A stretch of 64,000 bases of DNA. Source: a bacterium (GTDB lineage Bacteria > Verrucomicrobiota > Kiritimatiellia > CAIKKV01 > CAITUY01). A model generated the notes under the pieces. That model was not told the origin of the DNA. It made no database searches and saw only the letters and a list, made by a program, of their open reading frames with translations. The translations under genes and the position numbers were made by a program. Each line of letters begins with the position of its first letter. The first letter of the stretch is position 1. The stretch is from positions 9,553 through 73,552 of the forward strand of contig JBAWZH010000001.1 of the NCBI GenBank assembly GCA_037143135.1, in the 5' to 3' direction. Shown piece after piece: positions 4,140 through 33,011 of this stretch.

Positions 4140-4174
4140 GGTGCCTTTTTGAGCAATAAGAAAGGGAATGAACG

Positions 4175-5053: not shown

Positions 5054-5071
5054 TATTAGTCAGGTCAATTC

Positions 5072-7903: not shown

Positions 7904-7966
7904 TCGAAACCTTTTGCCATCAAATTGTTGACGATCAGAAAATCGCGACCGTAGTGGGGTGGTGTC

Positions 7967-8506: not shown

Positions 8507-8555
8507 AGGGAGGGAGCATCCTTCCGATTTAGGATTATGGATGATATTGACCCAG

Positions 8556-9095: not shown

Positions 9096-9169
9096 ATGAA
9101 TAGTCTAGGGGCTGCTGGTTCGCACGACCATGGGAGCATCAGGGAACAAACGGGATAATCTGGGATCAT

Positions 9170-13881: not shown

Positions 13882-14863
13882 CCTACACAGTGAATTCGGA
13901 ACATTCCACGATAAAGTCGCTCTTTCCTCAAGCAAGAAGGCGTCTTTACGCACATCGCGAGACGCCATTCGTGACCGTATTCGCAAACACTTTATTGAGG
14001 TTCTGAAAGTCGATCCTCCAAAGTTCCATGCCCAGGGCTCATTTACCATGGTAACGACAATGAACCCGCTCGACGGCGAGTTCGACATCGACGATGGTGT
14101 TTACCTGCAACACTTGGATCCTCATGACAGCAGCAAATGGCCGACGCCTGAAACCGTCCATGGATGGATCATCGACGCTATTGATGATCATACGGATGAG
14201 AAGCCGATAGACAAGCGCACGTGTGTTCGTGTTCAGTACGCAGGGCAGTATCATGTGGACCTCCCATCCTATGCCAAACTGAATGGCGATTACATGCTGG
14301 CAGTCAAAGGAGATGCCGGTTGGCATCGCAGCGATCCAAAAGCTATCACCGACTGGTTCAAGAAGCGCGTGAAACAGAACGGTGAGCAATTTCGGCGCAT
14401 CGTGCGTTATCTGAAGGCATGGACTGACTACCAGTCTGGGAAGCGTGGTAAGATGCCGAATGGACTGATCATGACCGTTCTGGCATCAGACTGTTTCTGC
14501 GCGGATGCACGAGATGATGTGTCTCTGGCAAATACCGCCGCCGCCATCAAGCGTGCCGTCACACCAGTCTTCTGTGTTCGCAACCCAACTGACACCTCAG
14601 AGGAGATCACACGACGCTTGACAGATGAGCAAAAGAGTCGTTTCCAGGCGGCAATAACGGACTTAGCGGCAGATGGTGCGGCTGCCGTCGCGGAGAAAAG
14701 CAGGAAGAAGGCGTCGAAGCTATGGCAGGGGCAACTGGGTGATCGTTTTCCTCTAATTGATGAAGAGGATAGTAAAGATGAAGACCGAAAGAAAGAGGAT
14801 GCCAACCGACTGGCGGCGTTCTTCGTGTCCACGAAGCCCCCAAAGCCATGGGCATTCCAATGA
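13874..14863 (+). CDS. CD-NTase / SMODS-family cyclic oligonucleotide synthase
   Basis: Pol-beta NTase core QGSFTMVTTMNPLDGEFDIDDGVYL (GS ... DxD). The N-terminal helix pattern (FHDKVALSSSKKASLRTSRDAIRDRIRKHF) is typical of CD-NTases. ATG 13874 has AGGAG upstream; the ORF-track start is 13832. Confidence 0.75.
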   Translation: MADLHSEFGTFHDKVALSSSKKASLRTSRDAIRDRIRKHFIEVLKVDPPKFHAQGSFTMVTTMNPLDGEFDIDDGVYLQHLDPHDSSKWPTPETVHGWIIDAIDDHTDEKPIDKRTCVRVQYAGQYHVDLPSYAKLNGDYMLAVKGDAGWHRSDPKAITDWFKKRVKQNGEQFRRIVRYLKAWTDYQSGKRGKMPNGLIMTVLASDCFCADARDDVSLANTAAAIKRAVTPVFCVRNPTDTSEEITRRLTDEQKSRFQAAITDLAADGAAAVAEKSRKKASKLWQGQLGDRFPLIDEEDSKDEDRKKEDANRLAAFFVSTKPPKPWAFQ

Positions 14864-15672
14864 CTGCCTGGTACCAGATCAACCAGCGGCTCTTTCGGAA
14901 GGAAAAGGCGGCACTAGAAACTGCTCAGCCAGGCATGAGCCTCGAAATACGAGAAACTGGTTTCAGGATCAATCGGGAGCTCAGTCTTAAACGGGAATGC
15001 GCTGTCGCCGCTGGCGTCTTCAGCCTCAAAGCTCCTGGGACGGGAGTCTATGACTATCGGATCGCCGTGCTCCCGCCGGATAACTACCCTGCATCTCCGT
15101 GCATAGTCTTCTGCGATGATCCACGATTACCGATCGGCAACATCGATCGTCACATTCTCTCCGATGGACAGGCATGCCTGGCGGTTCCTGGGGATCTTTG
15201 GCATCGCTGGAGGCCTGAAGACGGCATCGTCGGTTTTCTTGATGAATTCGTTGCGCCATTTCTGGCATGGCAGGTGTACTACGATGCACATGGGTGTCCG
15301 CCTCCTTGGGGACAGCGGGCTCATGGTCTCCTGGGCATAACCGAGTACTACACGGAAGTCTTGGGCATTCCAGCCGAATCCAACATTACCGCATTCATTC
15401 CGCTCATTGCCCGGAAGAATCCCCCACAAGGCCACGAAACATGCCCTTGTGGCTCAGGACTCCGTCTCCGGCATTGCCATATTAAAGAATTAAGAGAAGC
15501 TCGATCACGGATCCCCTGGCAGGCCGCAAAGCAGGATCTCTCCGCCGTATCTCGGATCGTGGGAAACAGGAACAATGGCAATAAACAACCTGGCTCACTC
15601 GCTTCAATAAAGGTGTCTAGTTTTGCAGAATCAAGATCAATGTCCACAACCGTCGCCGCAGGCGAAGGCTGA
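14860..15672 (+). CDS. Prokaryotic E2-like (UBC-fold) protein with C-terminal SEC-C zinc motif
   Basis: IDRHILSDGQACLAVPGD matches the E2 H-x-N/D ... G-x-x-C-L catalytic-Cys loop. C-terminal CPCGSGLRLRHCH is a SEC-C motif. ATG 14860 overlaps the CD-NTase stop (ATGA); the alternative start is 14848. Confidence 0.6.
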   Translation: MTAWYQINQRLFRKEKAALETAQPGMSLEIRETGFRINRELSLKRECAVAAGVFSLKAPGTGVYDYRIAVLPPDNYPASPCIVFCDDPRLPIGNIDRHILSDGQACLAVPGDLWHRWRPEDGIVGFLDEFVAPFLAWQVYYDAHGCPPPWGQRAHGLLGITEYYTEVLGIPAESNITAFIPLIARKNPPQGHETCPCGSGLRLRHCHIKELREARSRIPWQAAKQDLSAVSRIVGNRNNGNKQPGSLASIKVSSFAESRSMSTTVAAGEG

Positions 15673-17269: not shown

Positions 17270-17500
17270 ATGCCACATGAAAAACAGATCAAGCATGATG
17301 ATGTATTGAACGCTGACGAGGCTTCCACCTGGCTTAAAATCCCTAAGTCCACCCTCTACAAGTTATGTAGCGAAGGTGAACTGCCGGCCGCAAAGGTGGG
17401 GCGTCATTGGCGATTCCACCGGGAAACGCTTGAGCAATGGTTGTTAGAGAAGACTCAGCGCCCCCAGGCCGATGACCCAGAAGCCAATTCAGAGGAATAA
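17270..17500 (+). CDS. Excisionase/MerR-superfamily HTH DNA-binding protein
   Basis: LNADEASTWLKIPKSTLYKLCSEGELPAAKVGRHWRFHRETLEQWL matches the excisionase-family HTH. ATG 17270 chosen; the ORF track uses TTG 17255. Confidence 0.7.
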   Translation: MPHEKQIKHDDVLNADEASTWLKIPKSTLYKLCSEGELPAAKVGRHWRFHRETLEQWLLEKTQRPQADDPEANSEE

Positions 17501-17501
17501 T

Positions 17502-18608
17502 ATGCCACTTCTCCAGGAAGGCTTAAATATACGAGGGACATACGAAGTGGAGAAATTCCTCGGCGAGGGCGCTTTTGCCGAGGTTTACCGCGTCCGGCAC
17601 CGGTTTCTTGGCCGACAGGCCATGAAGGTTTTCAAGCGCCTTAACATGACCGAAGAGGAAGTGCTCGATGCGCTGAATGAGGCGATTCTGCTGACGCACC
17701 TCAAACACCCCAATATTGTTAGTGTCCACGATGCAAACGTTTTTGAATTTCCCAAAGGTGTCTGCGGCTACTTCACAATGGAATTTGTGCCAGGGGGCAG
17801 TCTTGATAGGTTTTGGAGATCGCACGGCTCCACTCTTGTCCCGATTGAGACGACGGTCGACGTCATGCGTCAGGTATGCCGGGGTCTTTCCATTGCTCAT
17901 GCAGGAACCCCACCCATCATTCACCGTGACATAAAACCTCAAAATATTCTCGTGGGTTATGAGGCCGACGGGCTTCGCGCCCGAGTAAGCGATTTCGGAT
18001 TAGCCAAGAAGGTTAATCCGCTGACACTCCTTGCAACTGCTGCCGGGACGCTTCAATTCAAACCCCCGGAAACATTTCTGAAGTCGAAGGCAGATTCGTG
18101 TGCAGCTGACGTTTGGGCGCTTGGTGTGACGCTCTACCTCTTATTAACCGATCAATTTCCCTTCGAGCTTGATTCTGATTTGGGCTGGTCAAACAAGAAG
18201 GCATTTGAAAAGGAAATCACTCCTCCCAATTCATGGAACGTCGAAGTCGATCCTGCCCTTGAGAAAATTGTTTACAAATGTCTCAAGCCGAAACCAGAGG
18301 ATCGATATCCGACAGCCAAAGAATTGCTTGAAGCCTTGGAATCCTGGAAAAAGCCTTCACCCTCCAAAATCATCAAGCCGGCAAAAACAGTTTCTTCGGA
18401 AATGTCAAAAAGCATTCTTGGGGCACATTCACCTATCAATCAAGAAGAAGGTCATCGCCTAGTCAAGCAAGCCGTCAAGAAGGCTAAGGAAGAGGGGCGA
18501 TTGTTTGAGGCTGCTGATCTTATGGAAGAGGCTTTTAACAAGTCGCCATCACTTCGGCAGAAGTATGCGAACCAAGTCAAACTATGGCGTTGCGGCATCA
18601 GCATGTAA
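17502..18608 (+). CDS. Hanks-type Ser/Thr protein kinase
   Basis: LGEGAFAEVY (G-loop), QAMKVF (Lys), IIHRDIKPQNIL, VSDFGLAK and GTLQFKPPE are all present. ATG 17502 has GAGGA 5 nt upstream, directly after the HTH stop. Confidence 0.85.
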   Translation: MPLLQEGLNIRGTYEVEKFLGEGAFAEVYRVRHRFLGRQAMKVFKRLNMTEEEVLDALNEAILLTHLKHPNIVSVHDANVFEFPKGVCGYFTMEFVPGGSLDRFWRSHGSTLVPIETTVDVMRQVCRGLSIAHAGTPPIIHRDIKPQNILVGYEADGLRARVSDFGLAKKVNPLTLLATAAGTLQFKPPETFLKSKADSCAADVWALGVTLYLLLTDQFPFELDSDLGWSNKKAFEKEITPPNSWNVEVDPALEKIVYKCLKPKPEDRYPTAKELLEALESWKKPSPSKIIKPAKTVSSEMSKSILGAHSPINQEEGHRLVKQAVKKAKEEGRLFEAADLMEEAFNKSPSLRQKYANQVKLWRCGISM

Positions 18609-18612
18609 ACCA

Positions 18613-21420
18613 ATGAACACCAACGAAGATATATACGAATGTCGTTTGGCGGCAGAAGGTGGCGATGCCGAAGCCCAGTACCAGCTGGGCTTGAAGTTCG
18701 TTAACGGACAAGGTGTAGAAAAGGATGAGGCAGAAGCTGTAAGGTGGTATCGAAAAGCTGCCGAACAGGGGCATTCTACTTGTCAATATTTCCTTGGCTG
18801 GTATCTCGCCAACGGTCGGGGTGTTGAAAAGAATGAAGCGGAAGCCGTCACATGGTATCGAAAAGCTGCCACTCAGAATGTTTTAGGCGCACAATTTGAC
18901 CTTGGGGTTATGTATGCCAATGGTCGTGGCGTGACTAAGGATGCTGTTGAGGCGGCTAAATGGGCTCGCAAGGCAGCTGAACAGGGGCATGCAGAAGGTC
19001 AATATTATCTTGGGTGGTATCTCGCCCGTGGTCAGGGAGTGAATAAGGACGAAGTAGCGGCAGTCACATGGTATCGTAAGGCCGCTGAACAGGGTAATGC
19101 TGGCGCGCAGTGCGAAATGGGGATTATGTGTGCCGATGGGCGAGGTACGGGAAAAGATGCAGCAGAAGCCGCGATGTGGTTTCGCAAGGCCGCAGCTCAG
19201 GGAAACAAGAAAGCGCAGGAACTTCTATCCAATCTGCCTCAAGCAGCTCAAACAATACAAGCCCCAGCGGCTAAACCACGAGCCGCAAGTCGTGAAGCAA
19301 AAGCGGCTGCGCCAGAGTGCAAACCCCTATTGGATGCCAGTACACCCAGAGTTTACGTCCAAAACGCCTTCAGAATCACGGGACTTGCTGTTGATGCACA
19401 AACGCGAGACATCAAGCGTCGCATCGATGACCTAAAACACGCCGAAGAAAATGGGGAAGCAGAGGATGAGCATAATCATGCGTTTGCAATTGTTCCGCCC
19501 CCCTCAATTGAACATATCCGTGAAGCTGCACAGAGATTGCATGATCCGGAGCGTCGTCTAATCGAGGAGTTCTTTTGGTTTTGGCCTAGTGAATGGGGTA
19601 AAGGGAATTCAGATCCCTCATTACTTGCGATGAAGAATGGGGATAAAGACACCGCGTTTAAGAATTGGCTGGCATGTATCTCCGATGACGCCAAGAGTGG
19701 AGTCGTTTCGCGAAATGGAGGAATAGTAATCCGCGATCAGTCGGCTTTGGCAAGCCCTCGCGAAATTGCGGTTGCCAAGCATAATCTTGCAGTGATGTAT
19801 CAACTGGTTGCTCTCGACTCAGAGCATCACGTTCTGGAAAACGAATTTACTGCGGCACAACTTGAAACCATCGAGCAATATTGGCGTAAATGTTTCAAAT
19901 GGTGGGAAGAACTAACTGAGGACGAAACCTTTTGGAGCCTGATAACTGAGAGAATTCGCATGTATAACGAGCCGGAACGCCTCAAAACCGGATTTGCTCG
20001 ACAAATGCGTGCTTCTCTCCCGGAGGCGATGGACAAAATCAATGCCATGCTGGCAATTAGCTATTCTGAACGCGGGAAACTGGCGCTAGCGGAGAATCAC
20101 ATCCGTTATATGAAGGAGACGCATCAAGGTCAGGATGATATTGAGAAAACCTTAGCAATGGTGACGCAACCGCTTAAGGCTCGTGTCATAAGTTATGTGG
20201 AGAAAGCTACTGGCGTGGCGGATAGGCAACCACAGCAAGCCGCTAAATCGGCACGTGAATTGTTGCAGGCGGTTGCCGAACCAATGAAGATCATTCAGCA
20301 GATCCTGTCGCCAGAGGATCACGTGCGAATTGATCTATTCGACAGCGTCGCTGAAGCGTGCCTGACATGCCAACTTGCCTATGCGCGCGAAACGAAAGAT
20401 TGGTCAGCGAGCCTAGCAATTATCGAAGATGGCGCCAAGTACGCCGTCTCCAGTGAGACGAAAAAAAGACTTGCCGAGAATATTGCAAAAGTTACCAGAA
20501 ATAAACTTTTCGGGCAGTATATTGAACCTCTAGCAGAGTTAATTGAGAAGAGCCGAGCCAGAAGTTCAACAGCGGCGAAAGTGAGATCCGTTGAAGAGAA
20601 TCTGCTGCCCTACCTTAAGAAAATAGAGAGTGCCAAAGGCGTTAGCATTGATGTCTATAATGAGTGTGCGGATCTTGTTGCACTCTTTGTCCGGGGGGTA
20701 TCAATTTCTGCATATAATGAGGATAACGATTTGGCCGGCTCGATTAACATTTTAAATATTGCGCTAAACACAGCTCGAGGCCGAGAAGCACGTGAACAAT
20801 TGCAAAAAGATAAAGATCAGCTTAAAGGTTTTGAGGCTGAATCCACCAAACATAATCTTCGTATGCAGATTCGTGGTGACGACATTGAGATCACTCGCGA
20901 CTATGTTCGCTACAAACAGGATAAAATTCCAGTTTCTCAAATCCAAGGCGTTAAATTTGGTGTCTTTGTGCAGTACACAAACGGCGTGGAATCAAGTTCA
21001 TCGTATTTGATCGATATTACGGATGGCGGCAACATAAGAATCCACATTGAGTGCAAGCGAATATTTCGCGGTAAATCAGATGCCGAACAGGATTACAGAC
21101 GGATCCTCGACGCGATTTTTGAGCAGATCGCCACTCCGCTAGTTCAGAAGTTGGCTCAAAGCGTAGTCGCGGGGCGACCCTTGCAGATGGGGGGAGCTCG
21201 ATTAACGTCCGAAGGAGTCTATCTAACAACAGGATCTCTTTGGTGGCAAAAAGAAATAATGGTCCCGTGGTCAGACATCCGATACGGAAATCATCAAGGT
21301 TCGCTGAATCTGTCATCATCAAAGGATAAGAATATTTCTACTTCCATGGCATTACGTGACGCGTGGAATGCTGTTTTCTTTGAATATATTGCCAAAGCAG
21401 TAGTAAAGCTTAAAGGCTAA
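18613..21420 (+). CDS. Sel1-repeat protein with a degenerate J-like segment and a large C-terminal region
   Basis: About six Sel1 repeats (AEAVRWYRKAAEQGH ... AQYxLGxxYxxGxGVxKD). The J-like segment is NAFRITGLAVDAQTRDIKRRIDDLKH ... AAQRLHDPERRLIEEFFWFW, without HPD. ATG 18613 lies 4 nt after the kinase stop; the ORF-track start 18505 overlaps the kinase. Confidence 0.65.
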   Translation: MNTNEDIYECRLAAEGGDAEAQYQLGLKFVNGQGVEKDEAEAVRWYRKAAEQGHSTCQYFLGWYLANGRGVEKNEAEAVTWYRKAATQNVLGAQFDLGVMYANGRGVTKDAVEAAKWARKAAEQGHAEGQYYLGWYLARGQGVNKDEVAAVTWYRKAAEQGNAGAQCEMGIMCADGRGTGKDAAEAAMWFRKAAAQGNKKAQELLSNLPQAAQTIQAPAAKPRAASREAKAAAPECKPLLDASTPRVYVQNAFRITGLAVDAQTRDIKRRIDDLKHAEENGEAEDEHNHAFAIVPPPSIEHIREAAQRLHDPERRLIEEFFWFWPSEWGKGNSDPSLLAMKNGDKDTAFKNWLACISDDAKSGVVSRNGGIVIRDQSALASPREIAVAKHNLAVMYQLVALDSEHHVLENEFTAAQLETIEQYWRKCFKWWEELTEDETFWSLITERIRMYNEPERLKTGFARQMRASLPEAMDKINAMLAISYSERGKLALAENHIRYMKETHQGQDDIEKTLAMVTQPLKARVISYVEKATGVADRQPQQAAKSARELLQAVAEPMKIIQQILSPEDHVRIDLFDSVAEACLTCQLAYARETKDWSASLAIIEDGAKYAVSSETKKRLAENIAKVTRNKLFGQYIEPLAELIEKSRARSSTAAKVRSVEENLLPYLKKIESAKGVSIDVYNECADLVALFVRGVSISAYNEDNDLAGSINILNIALNTARGREAREQLQKDKDQLKGFEAESTKHNLRMQIRGDDIEITRDYVRYKQDKIPVSQIQGVKFGVFVQYTNGVESSSSYLIDITDGGNIRIHIECKRIFRGKSDAEQDYRRILDAIFEQIATPLVQKLAQSVVAGRPLQMGGARLTSEGVYLTTGSLWWQKEIMVPWSDIRYGNHQGSLNLSSSKDKNISTSMALRDAWNAVFFEYIAKAVVKLKG

Positions 21421-21470
21421 CCTGACAAAAACTGTCTGATTTTATGTAACACAACGAATAGGAAGCACCT

Positions 21471-22034
21471 ATGAGCAAACAGAAGCGTATGCAGGCGAGT
21501 CCGCCGAGTCGTGGTATTGTCCACATGTTTAACATGCTTAATCTCAAGCTCCCAAAGGAGCTGCGACTTCCTCCCCTCAATGACGCACCTAATTTAAACG
21601 CCCTTAAGACTCGCTTCAATGAGCTTGAAGCATTGTTGGCGCGGTCGAAGACTTCAACCCGAATCTCATCTTCTACCCCGGCTGCACCGAATCTTGATGA
21701 AAAAGCGATTGCGAACCTGGCCACTAATGCTTGGCGTGCTAAAACCAAGATGCTTGACCAGGATTCGGGTGAAGTTAAGGAAGAAATGAAGCGTGTGTAT
21801 CGGCACATTGAAGCTATCTTTGAAACGCTGAAAGGGCTGGGTGCTGAGATTCTTGACCCATGCGGTCGAAATTATGATTCCGGCATGGCGTTAAAGGTTA
21901 TCAGTTTTGAGCCGACCCCGGGAGTTTCAAAGGAAGAAATTAAGGAAACAATCAAACCATCTGTGATGTGGCAAGGACGCCTTATACAAATGGGTGAGGT
22001 AATTGTGGGTACTCCCAGCAAAGTAGATAAATGA
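21471..22034 (+). CDS. GrpE-like nucleotide-exchange-factor homologue
   Basis: The C-terminal part IEAIFETLKGLGAEILDPCGRNYDSGMALKVISFEP ... GRLIQMGEVIVG follows the GrpE four-helix/beta-domain pattern (G-x-E-x-I ... G-x-x-(F/Y)D ... V-x-V). It sits directly upstream of an Hsp70 gene with an ATGA overlap. Confidence 0.55.
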   Translation: MSKQKRMQASPPSRGIVHMFNMLNLKLPKELRLPPLNDAPNLNALKTRFNELEALLARSKTSTRISSSTPAAPNLDEKAIANLATNAWRAKTKMLDQDSGEVKEEMKRVYRHIEAIFETLKGLGAEILDPCGRNYDSGMALKVISFEPTPGVSKEEIKETIKPSVMWQGRLIQMGEVIVGTPSKVDK

Positions 22035-24529
22035 TTAATGAGGGAATGAATATGACAAGAACAACTATTGACTTCGGAATCGATCTTGGGACAACAAACA
22101 GCGCGATCGCTGTTCTAAATGGCACGCGGCCCGATGTCATTAAAAACAACGTGGATACTGATATTACTCCGTCGGCTGTGTTTATTGATAAGCGTGGATT
22201 GGTTCAAGTAGGTCAACGTGCAAAGAATCGCCAGGAGGATGAAAGCGCTGTAGACGACGTTTACATTGAGTTCAAACGCCGCATGGGTACTGACCACCGG
22301 TACGAGTTCAAAACAGCGGCGCGAACTATGCGGCCAGAAGAAGTTTCCGCCGAAGTCCTGAAAAGTTTACGTGGTGATGTTCAACAACGCCTGGGTGAGG
22401 ATGTCCAATCAGCCGTTATTACTGTGCCTGCTATATTTGAACAGAATCAATGTGCGGCAACTATTAAGGCTGGGCAACTTGCAGGGTTTGTTCAGTGTCC
22501 ACTGCTTCAAGAACCGGTTGCGGCAGCTCTTGCCTATGGTTTTCAATCTGATGTTACAAAAGAGTATTGGCTCATTTACGACTTCGGTGGCGGTACATTT
22601 GACGCTGCAATCATGAAGGCGGAAGACGGTGGTATTAGCGTGGTTAATCACGGTGGGGATAACTACCTTGGCGGCTCTGATATTGACTGGGCAATTATCG
22701 ATCAATTGATAATTCCAGACCTTAAGTCAAAGTTCAACCTGCCCGAGTTTTCGAGAAATAACAATAAATGGCGGACCGAATTTGCTCGCATTAAAAATGC
22801 AGTTGAAATTGCGAAAATTCAGCTTTCTCGCAGTGATACTGCCTTTTTGGAAGGGGGTGTGCTTAAAGATGCGGATGGGAAAAGGGTGGAACTGGATTTC
22901 AAGCTAACCAGAAATGCACTTGTTGGAGTTGCCGAGCCATTCATTATGCGCTCGGTCGAAATATGCAAAAGAGTTTTGAAGGAGAAGGGGCTATCGCCGA
23001 CTGCAATCGAGAAGGTTATTCTGGTTGGTGGGCCAACCCTTGCGCCATATTTCCGTGATATGCTGAAGTCCGGCTTAGGTATTCACCTTGATCATTCCGT
23101 AGATCCGCTGGTTGTTGTGGCGAAGGGTGCTGCTGTGTTTGCAGGAACTCAACGATTTGATACTGGTGCGGCGCCTCGACCCATTGCGGGCGAGTACAGC
23201 GTCGACCTGAAATACAAACCCGTTGGCGCTGATGAGGATCCGACTGTTCGAGGGGAAGTTACAGCAGATTCCGGCACAAGTATTGAGGGATTAACAATTG
23301 AGTTCGTCAATAATAAGAGCCTCTGGCGGAGCGGTAAAATTCCGCTAAAAACAGGAGGGAAATTTAAAGTCAACTTGTTGGCAGAGAAAGGCGGCCAAAA
23401 TGTATTCAGTATTGAGCTTGTAGACTCAAAAGGGCGCAAGCAGATTGTTAAACCGGATAATCTCTCCTACACAATCGGTATGGCGATATCTGAGCAGCCG
23501 TTTTGTAACGATGTTCGGTTAGCACTTGCAAATAACGATAGTGAGATATTCTTTAAAAAAGGTGATGCGTATCCCGCTACGCATTCATACCGGGGTTTCA
23601 AGACAACTCAAACGGTTCGCAAAGGCGAAAGTGGTGACATGCTCCGCATTCCAGTGGTTGAAGGTAATGAGGAGAAAGCAGACTGGAACCGCAAGTTGGG
23701 TGAACTAGTCATTTCCGGATCACAAATTAGACGCGACGTGCCTGCTGGCAGTGACCTTGAGGTTACTTTGCACGCAAAAGGTCCGGGAGCAATCCTCGCC
23801 AAAGCATATGTACCGTTGCTTGATGAGGAATTTGAGGCGATTATTGATTATGATAGGAAAGAACTGAATGTTAAGGATTTGCGCCGCCAATTTGAAGCCG
23901 AGTCAAAACGGCTTAAATCTTTAACTGCTAAAGCGAATGATGCAGAAGATGAGGGCGCTGGTAACTTGCTCGAAAGCGTGCCCGATATGGAAGTGATAGA
24001 CGGCCTCCTTGATACGGCAAAGGGGGATCCTGACTCGGCAAAAAAAGCGGAAAAGCGACTTATTGAATTGCGCATTCATTTGGATAAGGCCGAAGATTTA
24101 CTCAAATGGCCCGCGCTGGTGACGGAAGCCAAAACGGCGCTTGATGATTTAGATGAACTGATCGAGAAACACGGCGACGATACTCATCGCGATCAAAGTG
24201 CAAAATTCCGGGATCAGATTAAAGATCTAATTACCCAAAAACGCACTGAACCATTACGAAAGAAAGTCGCTCAAGTCTCAGATCTGCGTCTTGAAATACT
24301 TTTAGCACAACCAGGTTGGTGGGTGGGTTACCTTGAATATCTCATCGAACGACAGGGTAAGATGAATGATCAAGATAGCGCCGAGCGTCTTATCAATCAG
24401 GGAAGGCTTGCTATCAGCAAAAACAATCTTCAGGGGTTGCGTAGCGCCGTTGTCCAACTCTTAGACCTCTTGCCTAAGGAGGTTCAGGATGAAGTTCAGA
24501 GGGGATTTGGATCGGGAGTAATCAAGTAA
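22031..24529 (+). CDS. Non-canonical Hsp70 (DnaK-family) ATPase, 832 aa
   Basis: IDFGIDLGTTNSAIAVL, AVITVPAIFEQNQ, IYDFGGGTFDAAIMK and ILVGGPTLAPYFRDML are the actin-fold phosphate-1, connect, phosphate-2 and adenosine motifs. An SBD-beta-like part follows (LRIPVVEGNEEKADWNRKLGELVISG ... LEVTLHAKGPGAILAKAYV), then a long helical tail. Confidence 0.85.
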   Translation: MINEGMNMTRTTIDFGIDLGTTNSAIAVLNGTRPDVIKNNVDTDITPSAVFIDKRGLVQVGQRAKNRQEDESAVDDVYIEFKRRMGTDHRYEFKTAARTMRPEEVSAEVLKSLRGDVQQRLGEDVQSAVITVPAIFEQNQCAATIKAGQLAGFVQCPLLQEPVAAALAYGFQSDVTKEYWLIYDFGGGTFDAAIMKAEDGGISVVNHGGDNYLGGSDIDWAIIDQLIIPDLKSKFNLPEFSRNNNKWRTEFARIKNAVEIAKIQLSRSDTAFLEGGVLKDADGKRVELDFKLTRNALVGVAEPFIMRSVEICKRVLKEKGLSPTAIEKVILVGGPTLAPYFRDMLKSGLGIHLDHSVDPLVVVAKGAAVFAGTQRFDTGAAPRPIAGEYSVDLKYKPVGADEDPTVRGEVTADSGTSIEGLTIEFVNNKSLWRSGKIPLKTGGKFKVNLLAEKGGQNVFSIELVDSKGRKQIVKPDNLSYTIGMAISEQPFCNDVRLALANNDSEIFFKKGDAYPATHSYRGFKTTQTVRKGESGDMLRIPVVEGNEEKADWNRKLGELVISGSQIRRDVPAGSDLEVTLHAKGPGAILAKAYVPLLDEEFEAIIDYDRKELNVKDLRRQFEAESKRLKSLTAKANDAEDEGAGNLLESVPDMEVIDGLLDTAKGDPDSAKKAEKRLIELRIHLDKAEDLLKWPALVTEAKTALDDLDELIEKHGDDTHRDQSAKFRDQIKDLITQKRTEPLRKKVAQVSDLRLEILLAQPGWWVGYLEYLIERQGKMNDQDSAERLINQGRLAISKNNLQGLRSAVVQLLDLLPKEVQDEVQRGFGSGVIK

Positions 24530-24640
24530 GGACGGTACGTCTTACGACCATAATTAGGAGTTCTTTTTGTCAGTACCAAGGCATAAGAAACAGTGATGGA
24601 TTCCAGGGTTAGCGGTCAATGCAAGTGAACGGCGATCTTC

Positions 24641-25897
24641 ATGGCGAATGGGGAAATCAACTTCGACGAAATGCGAGCACCCGAGGTGGTTCGACCGCTT
24701 TCATTAAAGCAGGAAAAACCACCACGGGTGTCTACGCCCCCCCCGCCACTTAAGCAGCCCCCTCCGCCGCCCATTCCGCGTGCAGCCGCTCGCCCTCCAT
24801 CACCCCCGGCCGCAACACAAACTTCTCAAAAACAAAAACCAACTTCGATCGCACCAAAACCGCCAGAGACTAATAACGCATGGGTCGGCATCCTCGTTGT
24901 TGCGGGAATCATATTGTTGATCTGTTTCATGGTCGGGATTAGTTCGAGTCAGAACGGCGAAACTCCCAGGAATAATACCAGTGCGCCATCCGATCAAGTA
25001 CGCGTTCCGGAACAATCGATTATTCAACACATTCCCGAAACCGTAACAACAGTATTCCCGGAAACTCCAAAGGCGCCGATCCCGACACAAGTTGTACCTG
25101 ATATTCCGAAAACGACAGGTTCATGTCGGATTTCTGCTTTTGCAGTCGCTGGGAACGGAGAAAGACATTCTGTAACTGGAAATGCCGTTATTGCGTTCAG
25201 GCATGTTGATACAAGCGCGGCAATTTCGACGAATGTGATGATTCCGCGGATATGGCACGATATGCCAGCCGGGGAATACCACTTTGCCATTTTTATTTCT
25301 GGATTCACCCAGTCTTTTACAAATAAGATCAACATAACTGCGGATGATTACAATAATGTCGCTTTTTCATTGCAACCTCTCCCCGCTCGAGTGACCTTTG
25401 TCTGCCCATCAAATTCATTACCCTTCGCGATCTTTGATGATCACGGGTACCTGGGAAGCTCTGACAAAAGTTTTGAACTTTCGCCCTACCTCACCCATTT
25501 CTTGACGTTCAAAGCAGAAGGATGGCGTGACAAACCCATGAAGGTCAAGTTGGAGAAGCCAGGCGGGGCGTACCGATGTGCTGTTGAAATGGAACGTATC
25601 GCGTCAGGGCTTCGCATCACAGTTAGTGCAAATAAAGGGGAACCGCCGGTGGCCGGTGCTCTGATTGTGAATGGCGGGGAACCGGTAAAAGTGGCGTTCC
25701 CGTCCGAACAATCAAATTTGGCTTTCGCTGGCCCGTTGTCACTCGTTCTGGCGGTTGACGGGTATCAGGTCATTAACAACACCCAGCAAGTCACTCTCAT
25801 TGATAGAGAAATGGTTAACATTGAATTTCAGGTTGTGAAGAAATCATGGCTGTCGCGGATGCTTAACGGATCAGCTCGTAAGCAAATACAAAAGTAA
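24641..25897 (+). CDS. Pro-rich single-TM protein with PEGA/beta-sandwich-like extracytoplasmic repeats
   Basis: PPPPLKQPPPPPIPRAAARPPSPP tract, TM helix AWVGILVVAGIILLICFMVGI, then beta-rich segments with PEGA-like MPAGEYHFAIFISGF. Confidence 0.45.
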   Translation: MANGEINFDEMRAPEVVRPLSLKQEKPPRVSTPPPPLKQPPPPPIPRAAARPPSPPAATQTSQKQKPTSIAPKPPETNNAWVGILVVAGIILLICFMVGISSSQNGETPRNNTSAPSDQVRVPEQSIIQHIPETVTTVFPETPKAPIPTQVVPDIPKTTGSCRISAFAVAGNGERHSVTGNAVIAFRHVDTSAAISTNVMIPRIWHDMPAGEYHFAIFISGFTQSFTNKINITADDYNNVAFSLQPLPARVTFVCPSNSLPFAIFDDHGYLGSSDKSFELSPYLTHFLTFKAEGWRDKPMKVKLEKPGGAYRCAVEMERIASGLRITVSANKGEPPVAGALIVNGGEPVKVAFPSEQSNLAFAGPLSLVLAVDGYQVINNTQQVTLIDREMVNIEFQVVKKSWLSRMLNGSARKQIQK

Positions 25898-25945
25898 GTG
25901 CGACAATCCGCTTGTGACTGCGGTCATTGCGAGGAAGGTAAAGTA

Positions 25946-26959
25946 ATGAATAACGAAATCGAAACCGGCGAGGATAATTCAGGGTTATCCAATGATCTTG
26001 ATCTTCTTGAGGCTTCGCGCCTTATAACGGCTGGCGAAATCACTCAGGCGGAGGAAATCCTTCGGCGGATACATGCACGCATGCCCTCCTGTGAAGCATT
26101 AGACTTGATGGCGCGCATCTCAGTTTCAAAAGGGCAAATGTCCGAGGCGAGGCGCCTGTGGCAGGAGGTACTGGAAATTGATCGTTCCAATGTCTCGGCC
26201 AAATCTGCATTGGCGCGGCTCGACAGCCCATGGCTTGTTCCGGCAATTCTCGCGAGGTGTGGCTTTCTTGTCACAATTGCATTGCTGGCGAGTTTGGTGA
26301 TCGTTGGCGTTTTTGCTTTGTTCAACATTCAGCGTTTTATCGATTCAAATCATCCTGGTGGTTTTCAATCTTCAGAAACTGTAATTCATATTTCCAGTTC
26401 CGAATGCCCAACGAGAGATCAATCTCAGCCATCCACCACAGGAGATATCAAATCATCGAAAACAGTAGCGCAGGAAGACGCACCCATTCCGGTGCAACCT
26501 TTCAGCAACCCGCCTCCATTGTTTTCAATTCCTGCTTGTAGCGTCACCACGAATTTAACAGAAACCAGGATCATCTTTGAGGAGGGCATATTTGCGCGGC
26601 GATGCGAGTTAGTCAGCGATGCAAATGCGCGCCTCGATGCAGTCTCCCGAACCTTGTCTGAGCGCGGGACAGGTTGTTGGATCATAGTTGAGGGCTATAC
26701 GGATTCCGATCCGATTTCGGCTAATAGCATCTATCAGGATAATTTTGACTTGGGCATGCATCGCGGATTAGTAGTGGCTGAAGTACTGAAAATGTCGACG
26801 ACAATTCCTTCGCAAGATATTCTTGTCGGTTCAGCTGGGGATAATATCTCCCCATTGTTCCCGGGAGACGAGCCTGAGGTGAAAATGAAAAACAGAACGG
26901 TGGTCATTCATGTTATGCCGAAAGCATCAGCAACGACCACACTCGGAGAATCAAAATGA
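25946..26959 (+). CDS. TPR - TM - OmpA_C-like (peptidoglycan-binding) protein
   Basis: N-terminal TPR-like helices, TM helix FLVTIALLASLVIVGVFALF, and C-terminal IIVEGYTDSDPISANSIYQDNFDLGMHRGLVVAEVL (OmpA/MotB C-domain pattern). ATG 25946 has GAGGAAGG upstream; the ORF track uses GTG 25898. Confidence 0.65.
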   Translation: MNNEIETGEDNSGLSNDLDLLEASRLITAGEITQAEEILRRIHARMPSCEALDLMARISVSKGQMSEARRLWQEVLEIDRSNVSAKSALARLDSPWLVPAILARCGFLVTIALLASLVIVGVFALFNIQRFIDSNHPGGFQSSETVIHISSSECPTRDQSQPSTTGDIKSSKTVAQEDAPIPVQPFSNPPPLFSIPACSVTTNLTETRIIFEEGIFARRCELVSDANARLDAVSRTLSERGTGCWIIVEGYTDSDPISANSIYQDNFDLGMHRGLVVAEVLKMSTTIPSQDILVGSAGDNISPLFPGDEPEVKMKNRTVVIHVMPKASATTTLGESK

Positions 26960-28329
26960 GTTTGAACGCAGACCTTTCTATTCAACTTGTCTGGGCCATA
27001 GCGAACACTGAAGCTAATCTTTCAGGCGAGAAACGCATTCGACCAATTCACTTCTATTTAGGCATTCTCAAGTTGGTTGATCCAAGATTCCTGAAACAGT
27101 TGCATGGTGTGGATATACCGGAAGAGGAACAGCGCAGCCTCGGACAACTGTCCAAAGATGTCCGGCACTATCTTGAGATGACGGTTGATGAAATCACGAA
27201 ATTGCGCCGAGCCCTTAGAAGCGGGTTGCGAGAGGGAACGCCTGAAAAAGTCGAAATACACATGCTGCACAGATCAGATGATTCGAGAAAAGTCTTTCTG
27301 GAGGCTGGGAATAAAGTGATTCAAGCCGGGGGTAAGTCTTTGTCCGTCCTCCAGCTCGCAGAAGCTCTTTTCGAGTCTGGCGCCATCAGTCTAGATGGCC
27401 TTAAACGTCCCCATGGGCGTCCAAGTTCGAAAGGCGCGAAATGGGAGGTCGTTAATGACGGGAAGCCAGACAATCAAAAAAAGTATTCAGAATGGTTCGG
27501 GCGTAATCTGCTGAAAATGGCAATTGAGGGGACACTGCCACCTTTTGAGGGAAGAGAGCGGGAAATTAAAACCATCCTACGCGTTCTTTCCCGAACAAGA
27601 AAACGCCATATTGCCATCATCGGTGATCCTGGAGTTGGTAAAACGGCGCTAGTCGAAGGTCTGGCAAAGACTATTGCAGAGAAAAAGGTGCCTGTTGATT
27701 TGCATAATTCGGAAGTCCTTGAACTTCATGGCAGCGATATTTCAGCTGATTGTAAGAGCGAAGCAGAAATTAACCGGCGCATCTCGCATGTATTTCATGT
27801 TCTCGAGAACCATAAGCGGGCTGTACTTCTGCTCGATGATTTTCATGGTCTGTTCCCCAGCCATTTGAAGCATGATGCGACAGTTGACCTTCTTACAACT
27901 CTTCTGGCTGAGGATAATACTCCTGTGATTATTACAACCTTACCCGGGAAATGGGCGGGATTAACTGCCAGTGCGCCATCTCTTTTGAGGCATTTCGAGG
28001 TCATCAATATAACGGATCCGTCAGAAATGGAATGTAAGCGTGTTGCAGAGGCGTGGGTAAAGCGTATCGCAGAATCGCAAAGGATTAACTTCGCCCCAAA
28101 AGTGCTTGAGGCCATAATATCAGCGGCGGCTGGGTTATCGGCAGATCGGGCTTTAATTGATCGAATTGTGGATTTGATCGAGAATGCGGCAACATATGTA
28201 AAAGTGTCGGCGTTTTCATCAAATGATGCACGGCGCGACGTAACCACCGAGGTTATAGCGTCTGTCCTTACGGAGCATCACAAAGTTCGCTCAGTTAGAG
28301 CACCAAGAAGCATTGGTGAAAATCCATGA
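26956..28329 (+). CDS. Clp_N domain + single ClpA/ClpB-D1-like AAA+ module
   Basis: Clp_N-like N-terminus (IRPIHFYLGILKLVDP). FEGREREIKTILRVLSRTRKRHIAIIGDPGVGKTALVEGLA (Walker A). Walker B reads VLLLDDFH. ATGA overlap with the upstream gene. Confidence 0.75.
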   Translation: MSLNADLSIQLVWAIANTEANLSGEKRIRPIHFYLGILKLVDPRFLKQLHGVDIPEEEQRSLGQLSKDVRHYLEMTVDEITKLRRALRSGLREGTPEKVEIHMLHRSDDSRKVFLEAGNKVIQAGGKSLSVLQLAEALFESGAISLDGLKRPHGRPSSKGAKWEVVNDGKPDNQKKYSEWFGRNLLKMAIEGTLPPFEGREREIKTILRVLSRTRKRHIAIIGDPGVGKTALVEGLAKTIAEKKVPVDLHNSEVLELHGSDISADCKSEAEINRRISHVFHVLENHKRAVLLLDDFHGLFPSHLKHDATVDLLTTLLAEDNTPVIITTLPGKWAGLTASAPSLLRHFEVINITDPSEMECKRVAEAWVKRIAESQRINFAPKVLEAIISAAAGLSADRALIDRIVDLIENAATYVKVSAFSSNDARRDVTTEVIASVLTEHHKVRSVRAPRSIGENP

Positions 28330-28757: not shown

Positions 28758-31622
28758 ATGAAGATTACCGACTACCATGCCAAATACTACGCTTGTGAGT
28801 TGACCAAACGGTGTCCATCCGACAGCGTTGAGAAACTTGCGGCTTCGCTGGTTGATGCCCAGGTCGATCTGAACCCCCATCAAGTTGAAGCGGCCCTCTT
28901 TGCGTTCAAATCCCCATTTTCAACCGGGGCAATTCTCGCCGATGAAGTGGGCTTGGGTAAAACCATTGAAGCGGGACTCGTTCTGTCCCAGATATGGGCT
29001 GAAAAGAAACGCAAGATACTCATCGTTGTCCCATCAAGCTTGCGTAAACAATGGAACCAGGAACTCGCTGAAAAGTTCTTTCTTCCCTCCGAAATCCTGG
29101 AATCCAAGCCATTCAATGATTACGTCAAGGCCGGGCATCCGAATCCATTCCAGCAAGACAAGATCGTTATCTGTTCCTATCATTTCGCCCGGAACAAGGC
29201 AGATTACGCCGGTAAGGTTAGTTGGGATCTTGTGATTTTCGATGAAGCGCATCGTTTGCGCAACGTATATAAGCCGGAAAACAAGATAGCAAGGACCCTC
29301 AAAGAATCGCTAGGTCATTGCCCGAAATTGCTTCTAACAGCCACCCCTCTCCAAAACTCTTTGCTGGAGCTCTATGGGCTTGTGAGTTTCATTGATGAAT
29401 ACAGTTTCGGTGATCTGAAAAGTTTCAAGAATCAGTATGCTCGGATCAATACGCAGGAGACGTTTATCGAACTCAAAGCCCGCCTTGCGCCGATCTGTAA
29501 GAGAACCTTGCGACGGCAAGTCCTTGAGTATGTCAAATATACGAACCGCATTCCCATAACCCAAGAGTTTGTGCCGACGAAGGACGAAGAAAGACTTTAC
29601 GATCTCGTCTCCGACTACTTGCAGAGGCCTAATCTTCAGGCGCTCCCAGCCAGTCAACGTTCTCTTATGACGCTGGTGCTCCGCAAACTGCTTGCTTCCT
29701 CTACATTTGCAATTGCAGGGGCTTTGAACACGCTCATACACCGCCTCGAAGCCCGCATGAAGAACTCCAAAGTCGTTGATGCCAGCGCAGAGTTGTCCAT
29801 TGACTTTGAGGGGCTGGACGAAATCAAAGATGAATGGAATGACGAAGATAGTGATGCTGATGGGCCTGAGCAGATTACCAAAGAGGATGCGGATGCCATT
29901 GCGCAGGAGATCAGGGAACTTAAGGATTTCAGGATGTTGGCTGAATCCATTGCTCAGAATGCCAAAGGGAAAGCCCTCATCAAGGCTTTGAAAGCGGGAT
30001 TTGATAAGGCCACGACCCTTGGCGCAAGCAAAAAGGCTGTGATATTCACCGAATCCTGCCGCACCCAGGAATACCTGATTCGCCTCCTTTCCAATACCGA
30101 GTATGCGAATGGTATTGTGTTATTCAATGGCCAGAATAATCATCCGCAAGCCAAGCAGATTTATGGCGAGTGGCTCAAGAAGCATGAAGGCACCGATTTA
30201 ATCACGGGTTCAAGGACCGCCGATCTTCGCGCGTCTCTCATTGATAATTTCCGCGACGATGCACAGATCCTCATTGCGACTGAAGCCGCGGCAGAAGGTA
30301 TAAACCTGCAATTCTGTTCCCTAGTCGTGAATTATGATCTGCCATGGAATCCCCAACGCATTGAACAGCGCATTGGCCGTTGTCACCGATACGGGCAGAA
30401 ACATGATGTAGTTGTCGTCAATTTCCTGAATAAGAAGAATGCCGCCGATCAGCGGGTTTACCAGCTACTTGCCGAGAAGTTTCAGTTGTTTAGCGGCGTA
30501 TTCGGTGCCAGCGACGAAGTTCTGGGCAGTATTGAGTCCGGCGTGGATTTTGAAAAGCGTATTGTGGCCATCTATCAGACCTGCCGAACACCGGAGGAAA
30601 TTGAGGCCTCATTCGACCTTCTTCAGAAAGAGCTTTCTGGTCAAATTGATGAGACCATGAAAGTCACCCGGCAGCAGCTTCTGGATAACTTTGACGAAGA
30701 AGTCCATGAGAAGCTTCGGGTGAACCTGCAAGCCAGCAAGGATTACTTGAATCGGTATGAATCGCTTCTCTGGCGCCTCACATCACATGCCCTTACTAAC
30801 TTTGCGAAAATAGATGATTCAGCGTTAACATTTGACCTAACGGCCAATCCTTTCCCAACAAATAGCATTCCCTTAGGCCATTATCGCTTTGGCAGAGAGG
30901 TGGCTGATGCGCATCATTATCGGTTTGCCCACCCTCTTGCTCAACAGATCCTGCACGATTCCAAGGGTCTGAAACTACCGGCCGCAGAGGTTTGTTTCGA
31001 CTACTCTGCAAATCAGGCGCAGATCACGGCGATCATGCCTTTATTGAAGAAATCCGGGTGGATACGGCTTTGTCAGCTCACAGTCTCGTCATTTGAGGCC
31101 GCCGATTACCTTCTGTGGGCCGGGATCACAGATGATGGGGCGGCGCTCTCCGATGAACAATGCAAAAGACTATTCAACCTCCCTGCCGTTTCTGGGAAAA
31201 CTTGCTATTCAGCGCCTTCCGAGGATTCTTCCCTGAATAGCATTCTTAAGGGGGGTGAGAAGTCTATTCTCCAGAGCAATGCAGAGCGTGACGCTGGATT
31301 GTTTGACGCAGAAATGGGTAAGCTCGAACATTGGTCTGAAGACATGAAGACCAGCTTGGAAATCAAATTGAAGCAATTGGATATGGACATCAAAATGCGC
31401 AAAGCCGAAGCGCGTAAGATCACCAACCTTGAAGATAAGGTCAAAGCCCACCGCGAAATTAAAGACCTTGAGAAATCCCGTAACGATATGCGTCTCAACC
31501 TCTACCAAGCTCAGGATGACGTAGAGAACCAGAAAGAACGTTTGATAGAAAAGATTGAGGCAAGACTGAAGCAAAACGTAAATAAAACCGACATCTTTAC
31601 CATTCGCTGGAGGGTAGTATGA
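28758..31622 (+). CDS. SNF2-family helicase/translocase with unassigned ~350-aa C-terminal region
   Basis: ILADEVGLGKTIEAG (I), DLVIFDEAHRLRN (II), LLLTATPLQNSLLELYGL (III), NYDLPWNPQRIEQRIGRCHRYGQ (VI). The C-terminus ends in a K/E-rich coiled coil. Confidence 0.85.
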   Translation: MKITDYHAKYYACELTKRCPSDSVEKLAASLVDAQVDLNPHQVEAALFAFKSPFSTGAILADEVGLGKTIEAGLVLSQIWAEKKRKILIVVPSSLRKQWNQELAEKFFLPSEILESKPFNDYVKAGHPNPFQQDKIVICSYHFARNKADYAGKVSWDLVIFDEAHRLRNVYKPENKIARTLKESLGHCPKLLLTATPLQNSLLELYGLVSFIDEYSFGDLKSFKNQYARINTQETFIELKARLAPICKRTLRRQVLEYVKYTNRIPITQEFVPTKDEERLYDLVSDYLQRPNLQALPASQRSLMTLVLRKLLASSTFAIAGALNTLIHRLEARMKNSKVVDASAELSIDFEGLDEIKDEWNDEDSDADGPEQITKEDADAIAQEIRELKDFRMLAESIAQNAKGKALIKALKAGFDKATTLGASKKAVIFTESCRTQEYLIRLLSNTEYANGIVLFNGQNNHPQAKQIYGEWLKKHEGTDLITGSRTADLRASLIDNFRDDAQILIATEAAAEGINLQFCSLVVNYDLPWNPQRIEQRIGRCHRYGQKHDVVVVNFLNKKNAADQRVYQLLAEKFQLFSGVFGASDEVLGSIESGVDFEKRIVAIYQTCRTPEEIEASFDLLQKELSGQIDETMKVTRQQLLDNFDEEVHEKLRVNLQASKDYLNRYESLLWRLTSHALTNFAKIDDSALTFDLTANPFPTNSIPLGHYRFGREVADAHHYRFAHPLAQQILHDSKGLKLPAAEVCFDYSANQAQITAIMPLLKKSGWIRLCQLTVSSFEAADYLLWAGITDDGAALSDEQCKRLFNLPAVSGKTCYSAPSEDSSLNSILKGGEKSILQSNAERDAGLFDAEMGKLEHWSEDMKTSLEIKLKQLDMDIKMRKAEARKITNLEDKVKAHREIKDLEKSRNDMRLNLYQAQDDVENQKERLIEKIEARLKQNVNKTDIFTIRWRVV

Positions 31623-31719
31623 GTGAGCCGAACATCATCTGTCCAAAGTGCAAGGCGGAAATCAGGCTGTCCGAATCAATATGCTATTGTTTGCATTTTC
31701 GTTATGGAGAACCACTGAA

Positions 31720-33009: not shown

Positions 33010-33011
33010 CC

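Follow-up and report, generated by a model that had tools for sequence, protein, structure and literature searches.

The Hsp70 gene and its domain layout

The window analysed here is a 64,000-nucleotide stretch of contig JBAWZH010000001.1 (assembly GCA_037143135.1, positions 9,553 to 73,552), from a bacterium of the Kiritimatiellia. It carries a gene for an Hsp70 protein with a predicted immunoglobulin (Ig)-like domain between its nucleotide-binding domain (NBD) and the beta subdomain of its substrate-binding domain (SBD-beta). In the list of open reading frames (ORFs), the gene is a single uninterrupted frame at 22031-24529 (+), 832 amino acids long. The true start is likely M8, the eighth codon of this frame, at position 22052. 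The resulting length of 825 amino acids is that of a database protein of 100% identity (P0001) and of close homologues, all starting at 22052, and the other candidate ATG, upstream at 22031, coincides in part with the stop codon of the gene before it (21471..22034). We place the gene at 22052..24529 on the + strand and number residues on the 825-aa protein throughout; numbers in the 832-aa frame run 7 higher.

The domains follow one another on the + strand. The NBD, or ATPase domain (22052..23149, residues 1-366), is recognised by Pfam HSP70 (E 1.5e-73) and by DnaK NBD structures (E 1e-56). A variable tether of 15 residues, TQRFDTGAAPRPIAG (23150..23194, residues 367-381), leads to the insert, with a predicted local distance difference test score (pLDDT) below 50 at residues 371-375. 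The inserted Ig-like beta-sandwich (23195..23479, residues 382-476) has seven predicted strands with pLDDT of 77-90, and is followed by a linker-like segment, MAISEQPFCND (23480..23512, residues 477-487), with pLDDT below 50 at 477-481. SBD-beta (23513..23851, residues 488-600) has eight strands (488-599) and is assigned by hhalign to DnaK SBD-beta. The protein ends in an all-helical C-terminal lid (23852..24526, residues 601-825; helices at 607-820 in the AlphaFold model), which is about twice as long as the lid of DnaK and is kept in remote relatives.

Only the first of these parts is readily identified. The Pfam HSP70 match is confined to residues 15-372 of the 832-aa frame (profile positions 2-373 of 599), and structures of DnaK, mortalin, BiP and Hsc70 align to residues 15-375 of that frame only (8-368 in 825-aa numbering). 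The C-terminal 450 residues are thus not recognisable as Hsp70 at ordinary thresholds. A full-length AlphaFold2 model, built from a 37-sequence alignment, has a mean pLDDT of 85 and a predicted template modelling score of 0.70, and superposes best on ATP-bound, domain-docked BiP, with 462 residues aligned. Two defining traits of the Hsp70 superfamily are present, an actin-like ATPase domain with the catalytic set and an SBD-beta homologous to that of DnaK. The short hydrophobic linker that would join the NBD directly to SBD-beta is absent.

An inserted Ig-like domain separate from SBD-beta

Positions 23162-23460 of the window read in frame as residues 371-469, TGAAPRPIAGEYSVDLKYKPVGADEDP...FSIELVDSKGRKQIVKPD (also given as TGAAPRPIAGEYSVDLKYKP...ELVDSKGRKQIVKPD). 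The match to DnaK stops after the NBD and is resumed, in SBD-beta, from residue about 487-497 onward, so about 105-110 residues have no DnaK counterpart. When the family is aligned by MAFFT with three canonical DnaKs, the latter are gapped over about 100 columns exactly at the insert. AlphaFold predicts residues 382-476 as a seven-stranded sandwich both within the full protein and when modelled alone, with flanks of pLDDT below 50. The peptide LSYTIG forms the last strand of this domain in both models, and SBD-beta begins at about residue 487. The sandwich consists of two sheets and can be superposed on Ig, FN3, PKD and macroglobulin domains; structure searches put it among generic Ig-like, FN3, PKD and macroglobulin (MG) domains, and also SoxYZ, at sequence identities of 5-17%. 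Because these structural matches are generic, the fold gives no functional clue.

Profile comparisons distinguish the insert from its neighbour. The family profile, made from 37 members, matches DnaK structures a second time as a separate domain, with positions 497-619 aligned to Geobacillus DnaK 377-494 (independent E 0.001-0.03), and a profile of family residues 485-825 picks up the SBDs of numerous canonical DnaKs in the loci examined. Compared by hhalign with 37 DnaK SBD-beta segments, residues 484-602 score a probability of 96.4% (E 1.1e-9, 91 columns), in a register that lays the family motifs V-E-G-E..A..N..LG and EVT on QGER..A..N..LG and IEVTFDID of DnaK. For the inserted segment 378-478 the probability falls to 0.2% with DnaK SBD-beta and to 0.5% with the SBD-beta of the family itself. 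As the insert matches neither set, a divergent SBD-beta and a tandem duplication can both be rejected. These analyses show the insert to be a genuine Ig-like beta-sandwich of about 95 residues, separate from SBD-beta and, in the structure models, folding independently. We take the host Hsp70 to be cytoplasmic, because it is an ATP-dependent chaperone, unlike the mostly extracellular Ig-like domains that its insert resembles.

An earlier note on this DNA had described a beta-rich insertion of about 100 residues between the NBD and the substrate-binding part, likened it to an Ig module, and held that the idea would fall if the segment proved to be a divergent SBD-beta subdomain. The insertion is real, as the AlphaFold sandwich at 382-476, the hhalign comparisons and the DnaK gap of about 100 columns agree. 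The seven strands and the matches to Ig-like, FN3, PKD and macroglobulin structures bear out its Ig-like nature, every peptide quoted in the note is present and in frame, and the divergent-subdomain alternative failed when tried by hhalign. The boundaries need adjusting. An insert does lie at 23162-23460, but the folded module is at 23195-23479, and LSYTIG, its last strand, had been assigned to SBD-beta, whose start was thereby placed about 10 residues too early. Conservation in homologues from other genomes, which the note proposed as a check, extends down to 25% identity.

A widespread Hsp70 family

Among close family members, identity to the reference averages 73% in the NBD, 61% in the Ig module, 55% in SBD-beta, 46% in the lid and 38% in the tether, so that the insert is conserved about as well as SBD-beta. 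W425, S427, G436, A444, N450, L456, G461, P468 and Y473 of the insert are invariant or nearly so. The identical protein occurs on an independent metagenome contig, and at least 120 full-length homologues of about 825 aa bear the segment. Its conservation in every family member examined shows that it is not there by chance.

Searched exhaustively against 1.84 billion representatives, the insert profile found 402 proteins at E<=1e-3, or about 400 clusters at 50% identity. Among the best 150 of these 402, the NBD, the insert and the C-terminal region stand in that order in 104; another 35 have a partial architecture and are apparently fragments, and three short sequences (132-169 aa) consist of the insert alone. 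Eight more are giant Big_9/cadherin-like adhesins that score through repetition. Their repeats are individually weak, at 5e-5 to 4e-4 in the two that pass the local per-domain threshold and without a passing repeat in the others, and we ruled out a specific kinship of the insert with these multi-repeat proteins on the strength of those per-repeat scores.

More distant members were sought in a genome scan with the whole-protein alignment; canonical DnaK loci dominated its results, and it yielded at least nine distant full-length relatives. Full-length relatives at 25-43% identity occur in Pseudonocardia, Actinophytocola, Reyranella, a Muribaculaceae bacterium, Byssovorax, a Myxococcales bacterium, Clostridium, an unclassified Bacteroidetes bacterium and Pedobacter albus, and on plasmids of Haliscomenobacter hydrossis and Vibrio rumoiensis. 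Relatives with the insert span Actinomycetota, Alpha- and Gammaproteobacteria, Bacteroidota, Myxococcota and Bacillota, a range put at six phyla or more. All 11 remote relatives hold an equivalent segment in the alignment, with (W/Y/F)-x-(S/T)-G and N-x-F motifs, and in seven of them the insert profile is significant by itself. The presence of the insert across phyla down to 25% identity indicates that the insertion is ancient and defines the family. RefSeq names the Haliscomenobacter and Vibrio members merely 'Hsp70 family protein'. In the phage collection, no relative of the C-terminal half of the Hsp70 was found.

Some members have more elaborate architectures. P0066 (1246 aa) and P0076 (1254 aa) consist of a complete NBD-Ig-SBD-lid protein to whose N-terminus a further copy of the NBD alone is fused, and the phosphate-2 motif of this extra copy is degenerate (DFGNGTFD). 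P0121 (1544 aa) consists of two head-to-tail copies, each with NBD, Ig and C-terminal region, the C-terminal match of the first copy being the shorter.

Catalytic, allosteric and linker residues

We mapped E. coli DnaK numbering onto the family with MAFFT. The sequence used for E. coli DnaK was verified against the known length (638) and against known residue identities, 26 of 27 of which agreed; the single mismatch, D10, was an error in the expected residue and not in the sequence. The equivalents of D8, K70, E171, D194, T199 and D201, and of the P143 switch, are invariant in 46 members (37 close and nine remote), and those of P419 and K414 are retained. The peptide pocket stays hydrophobic, with L for V436, I or V at I438, V, I or L at I401, Y or F at F426, and V, I or L at I472. 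The arch residues are altered, M404 to A and A429 to T or S.

The residues that relay signals in DnaK have fared differently from the catalytic ones. R151, which we take to be a relay residue in allostery, is C in 36 of 37 close members. R167 is replaced by P, N170 by Q, T173 by V or I, D481 by S, and Q378 by an invariant aromatic residue (F/Y); the positions of D326 and D477 vary across the family. The DnaK residues that touch the HPD motif of J-domains are therefore not conserved in the family (R167 and Q378, and also N170, T173 and D477); in DnaK, R167 and Q378 contact D35 of that motif (Mayer 2021, PMC8215388).

The linker of DnaK, 386-VKDVLLLD-393, stimulates its ATPase 40-fold (Mayer 2021, PMC8215388). 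VLLLD is absent from both junctions of the family members, that between NBD and insert and that between insert and SBD-beta. Where the hhalign register sets VLLLDVTPL of DnaK, ahead of SBD-beta, the family has the largely non-hydrophobic G-[ML]-A-I-S-E-Q-P (residues 476-483). Q482 is invariant in it and E481 nearly so, and the motif is among the most conserved outside the NBD. Remote members have G-x-h-x-x-(Q/P)-P-L at this site, recalling L-L-D-V-T-P-L of DnaK. From these alignments we read G-[ML]-A-I-S-E-Q-P as a degenerate linker remnant, with the Ig domain inserted upstream of it.

In an unrelated Hsp70 of 760 aa from an Anaerolineae metagenome-assembled genome (MAG; JAXLWL010000002.1, locus L015, 8905-11187), the same NBD/linker junction carries an insertion with two zinc-ribbon motifs (CPHC...CQKC and CRYC...CNYC). 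The ribbons are followed by an intact hydrophobic linker, VVLIETIPKPLGI (VVLIE), which supports insertion upstream of the linker. This suggests that domains have been inserted repeatedly at the NBD/linker junction of bacterial Hsp70 paralogues.

Two mechanistic claims of the earlier note can be refined here. It had supposed that the allosteric linker was replaced or extended by the Ig-like module; VLLLD is indeed absent, but the arrangement is better seen as an insertion upstream of a conserved, degenerate linker-like segment. It had also proposed that coupling between NBD and SBD probably differs from that of DnaK, HscA and HscC. The loss of VLLLD and of R151, R167, N170, T173, Q378 and D481, with the catalytic residues kept, supports this indirectly, whereas the superposition of the model on docked BiP argues against complete uncoupling.

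The gene cassette around the Hsp70 gene

The Hsp70 gene stands in a cassette at 17472-28329 in which a kinase, a large scaffold, a small GrpE-like protein and the Hsp70 follow one another, usually with an AAA+ ATPase. The order kinase, scaffold, small protein, Hsp70 is repeated in unrelated metagenome contigs, and scaffold, small protein and Hsp70 occur together in Actinomycetota and Reyranella at 37-43% Hsp70 identity. The cassette genes of the window all lie on the + strand. The first encodes a Ser/Thr protein kinase (17472..18608) that matches Pfam Pkinase at E 2.2e-45 and has HRD and DFG motifs in its translation.

The large scaffold protein (18613..21420) has N-terminal Sel1 repeats (Pfam E 1.2e-47) and a conserved helical core, and its orthologues always lie upstream of the GrpE-like gene. 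The core opens with a J-domain-like pattern, Y..N.FRI.GL..DA..RDIKRR...L ... IR.A..RL.DP.RR...EFFWFWP, without HPD. Locus L001 has two scaffold paralogues (2821-5754 and 7298-9382), one of them with a tRNA_bind domain.

The next gene (21471..22034) encodes a putative nucleotide-exchange factor of 187 aa, with weak GrpE signals and the same position in distant loci. Pfam GrpE matches three orthologues of this small protein at the same profile positions, with E values of 0.12, 8.7e-4 and 0.042 and scores of 12-19 bits, short of the cut-off of 25.8. When six orthologues are combined into a profile, it matches the GrpE structure 4ANI (E 0.044) over the signature L..aGV..i...G..yD.

Two genes follow the Hsp70 gene (24641..26959). 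They are described from their translations, from Pfam and NCBIfam OmpA/MotB matches and from orthologues in L001. The product of the first is a 418-aa protein whose N-terminal region is rich in proline and in which we read a hydrophobic stretch as a probable transmembrane segment; the second encodes a 353-aa TPR and OmpA/MotB-like peptidoglycan-binding protein. These sequence features hint at an envelope-anchored part of the system. On plasmid 2 of Vibrio rumoiensis, a 'peptidoglycan-binding domain-containing protein' (L086, 11573-14054) comes after the Hsp70 and AAA genes.

The last gene encodes a 457-aa AAA+ ATPase (26956..28329) that resembles the first ATPase module of ClpA/ClpB; it matches NCBIfam ClpA at E 1.3e-39, below the family cut-off, and Pfam AAA. 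It has a single ATPase module, with LLLDDF in the Walker B region (D-D where D-E is usual), and its N-terminal region looked Clp N-domain-like in sequence. An AAA+ gene nearly always adjoins the Hsp70 gene (L001, L002, L008, Haliscomenobacter, Vibrio). Its form varies, from the single ClpA/B-like module downstream here and in L001 to a two-module Clp-like protein upstream in L002-L004. In a Muribaculaceae MAG, the gene next downstream of the Hsp70-Ig gene encodes a fusion of kinase and classic AAA ATPase, both domains being identified by Pfam (L008, 11524-13293). In the same place on plasmid pHALHY02 of Haliscomenobacter hydrossis, an 'AAA family ATPase' (L085, 10347-12161, WP_013769014.1) has an N-terminal region with 28% blastp identity to the window kinase, and on this basis it too appears to be a fusion. 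Such fusions would link kinase and AAA+ functions to the Hsp70.

The cassette lies among defence genes. Upstream of it is a CBASS system, with an oligonucleotide cyclase at 13832-14863 and an E2-like protein at 14848-15672. Downstream are a DrmD-like SNF2 helicase (28758-31622, E 1e-212), a SIR2-HerA pair (SIR2 31648-33009, HerA 32907-34784), a type III restriction-modification system (methyltransferase 35062-36789, restriction enzyme 36786-39467) and QatABCD (39714-44436). The Haliscomenobacter copy of the cassette borders BREX genes, and other copies adjoin excisionase-type helix-turn-helix genes, a recombinase, a PLD nuclease, a methyltransferase and a Cap4-type nuclease.

Relation to known Hsp70s and Hsp70-containing systems

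With DnaK the family shares the ATPase domain with all its catalytic residues, the eight-stranded SBD-beta with its hydrophobic pocket and P419/K414 equivalents, the helical lid, and a neighbouring GrpE-like gene, the GrpE matches here being weak and sub-threshold. It differs in having a tether and Ig-like domain of about 110 residues between NBD and linker, in lacking VLLLD, in the replacement of R151, R167, N170, T173, Q378 and D481, and in a lid of about twice the length. The DnaK equivalog cut-offs of NCBIfam are not reached (256.4 against 822.55 bits for TIGR02350 and 253.7 against 648 for NF001413), and the NBD alone is matched. Nor could a canonical J-domain partner be detected in the cassette by Pfam, PDB or hhalign searches with the scaffold.

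The recognised prokaryotic Hsp70 types are DnaK, HscA and HscC, all with contiguous NBD, linker and SBD (Mayer 2021, PMC8215388). HscA and HscC, like the present family, are Hsp70 paralogues that have specialised and spread horizontally, and the genes of their dedicated co-chaperones lie close by; they have a conserved linker, only small insertions or deletions and no dependence on GrpE (PMC8215388). HscC is further marked by characteristic NBD deletions and by an insertion of 4-8 residues in loop L1,2 (Mayer 2021, PMC8215388). Here, by contrast, an entire domain has been inserted and a GrpE-like gene stands next to the Hsp70 gene, a comparison made for HscC by description only. The HscA cut-off of NCBIfam (TIGR01991) is not reached, at 221.2 against 708.55 bits, and no HscC model is among the NCBIfam matches of the Hsp70.

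The extra sequence of Hsp110/Grp170 proteins is an acidic loop inside SBD-beta together with a C-terminal extension, and not a folded domain between NBD and SBD. These proteins are eukaryotic and act as exchange factors (PMC13580251). A 2026 review in FEBS J treats bacterial 'DnaK derivates' as unexplored 'dark matter', with truncated or missing SBDs and N- or C-terminal additions (PMC13580251). Our family falls into this catch-all of NBD-containing paralogues with modified linkers, added domains and unknown function, but the review has no domain between an NBD and an intact SBD, no dedicated GrpE-like gene and no kinase/AAA+ cassette in defence islands (PMC13580251).

Hsp70s have also been placed in predicted conflict systems. 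A GAP1-N2 GTPase occurs with HSP70, GrpE and DnaJ/TPR proteins (Kaur et al. 2020, PMC7159879), and CnuD of the CoCoNuT systems comprises Hsp70-like proteins with degenerate ATPase motifs (Bell et al. 2024, PMC11090510). The present cassette differs from both in being without a GTPase, tubulin or McrBC component, and the family differs from CnuD in its invariant catalytic residues. The two papers describe no Ig-like domain between NBD and SBD (PMC7159879; PMC11090510). In the literature searched, mostly outside subscription journals, we found no description of an Hsp70 with an inserted Ig domain, of this family or of its cassette. The sequences are already in databases under a generic name, and their architecture and context appear to be undescribed.

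Discussion

The analysis shows a family architecture of NBD, tether, Ig domain, degenerate linker, SBD-beta and long lid. We favour the reading that the Ig-like insert at the NBD/linker junction defines a distinct, widespread bacterial Hsp70 family with rewired coupling, in which the Ig domain serves as an adaptor, and we would give this whole reading a probability of about 0.55. The Hsp70 would still be an ATP-driven clamp for extended peptides, cycling between ATP and ADP states, and its nucleotide cycle would be driven by the cassette's own GrpE-like exchange factor. The Ig domain would be looped out on flexible tethers beside the interface, which would leave SBD-beta free to dock on the ATPase domain. 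The trigger for hydrolysis and the relay between NBD and SBD would have been rebuilt to act independently of the canonical J-domain/linker trigger. The Ig domain would most likely act as an adaptor, recruiting through its surface either a partner from the cassette (scaffold, kinase or AAA+ protein) or a target protein, and so take over part of the targeting role that J-domain proteins have for DnaK. Taken as a unit, the cassette is probably a stress or phage-sensing system built on a chaperone.

Several observations weigh against this picture. The scaffold, as a candidate J-domain protein, has no HPD and no Pfam or PDB match, and hhalign against 40 J-domains gave P 0.0095 and a probability of 4%, which leaves its J-like pattern short of statistical support. 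The GrpE assignment is weak (E 0.001-0.1), and in the PDB search the unrelated structure 7BQQ (E 0.0051) outranks 4ANI. For the insert, Foldseek gave no match below E 1e-3 and the fold matches are generic, while Pfam on the insert alone found no significant family, the best being CarboxypepD_reg at E 0.053. The partner that the Ig domain would bind is purely inferred. The case for a defence role is one of genomic association. In PADLOC-DB v2 the Hsp70, the GrpE-like protein and the 418-aa protein have no match and the scaffold has a non-significant one (E 0.0065), the remaining cassette proteins showing generic kinase, MotB and AAA similarities only. NCBIfam, too, has no specific model that matches the Hsp70, the GrpE-like protein or the scaffold. 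The same literature search found no tested defence system with Hsp70, kinase and AAA+ components.

Two alternatives would leave no extra domain to explain, and both are very improbable. SBD-beta is itself a beta-sandwich, and the segment is beta-rich and immediately adjacent to it, as would be expected if it were a divergent part or a tandem duplicate of that sandwich; the hhalign probabilities of 0.2% and 0.5% contradict this, and we consider it highly unlikely. Still less credible is an artefact or recent accident, be it a mistake of assembly or reading frame or a mobile in-frame insertion peculiar to this genome, and nothing was found in favour of it. The segment lies in a single uninterrupted ORF, the identical protein is found on an independent contig, at least 120 full-length homologues share the segment, and it is also present in RefSeq plasmids of Haliscomenobacter hydrossis and Vibrio rumoiensis.

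Two further alternatives accept the domain and assign it another role. In one, the Ig domain is a rigid spacer that keeps the ATPase and the peptide-binding domain permanently uncoupled. The protein would have ceased to be an allosteric clamp and would work as a holdase or, in the manner of Hsp110, as an NBD-mediated co-chaperone or exchange factor for the housekeeping DnaK. The loss of VLLLD and the replacement of R151, R167, N170, T173, Q378 and D481 fit such uncoupling, and Hsp110-like co-chaperone roles have been proposed for bacterial DnaK derivatives (2026 review, PMC13580251). Against it stand the strongly conserved linker-like motif (Y473, G476, E481, Q482, P483) and the hydrophobic pocket that the family keeps. 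The 15-residue variable tether is also long enough for looping out, the model superposes on docked ATP-state BiP over 462 residues, and possession of its own GrpE-like gene argues for a self-contained nucleotide cycle; we regard permanent uncoupling as unlikely. Alternatively, the Ig domain could itself be the recognition or assembly module, binding a client such as a phage structural protein or oligomerising the Hsp70, rather than recruiting a partner. Protein-protein recognition and homotypic contacts are common tasks of Ig-like domains, the insert bears a remote similarity to the Ig/cadherin-like repeats of adhesins, and the cassette is located in defence islands. A sensor of fast-evolving invaders should vary, yet the insert is well conserved, at 61% against 46% for the lid, and this high conservation argues against direct recognition of such invaders. 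We think this role doubtful, and retain partner recruitment within a still-coupled Hsp70 as the preferred reading.

A bolder extension of the preferred reading is possible, though we offer it tentatively and think it has rather less than an even chance. The kinase, scaffold, GrpE-like protein, Hsp70-Ig and AAA+ unfoldase, sometimes with envelope-anchored proteins, could constitute an unrecognised anti-phage system. The Hsp70 would clamp an exposed segment of a phage or host protein, and the Ig domain, in place of J-domain control, would couple clamping to activation of the kinase or the AAA+ protein. The family would then add a fourth mechanistic class to the prokaryotic Hsp70s, marked by a new form of interdomain control.

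Hsp70 allostery is known almost entirely from proteins with a short hydrophobic linker, and this family has a folded domain at that very junction. With the ATPase and the peptide pocket kept and the J-domain and linker relay residues replaced, it provides a natural experiment on how the coupling of NBD and SBD can be rebuilt. Abundant in many phyla, where it forms about 400 clusters at 50% identity, the family travels with a kinase and an AAA+ protein in defence islands and on plasmids. Should the cassette prove to be an immune or stress-sensing system, it would clearly exemplify an Hsp70 machine serving as a component of bacterial signalling or defence.

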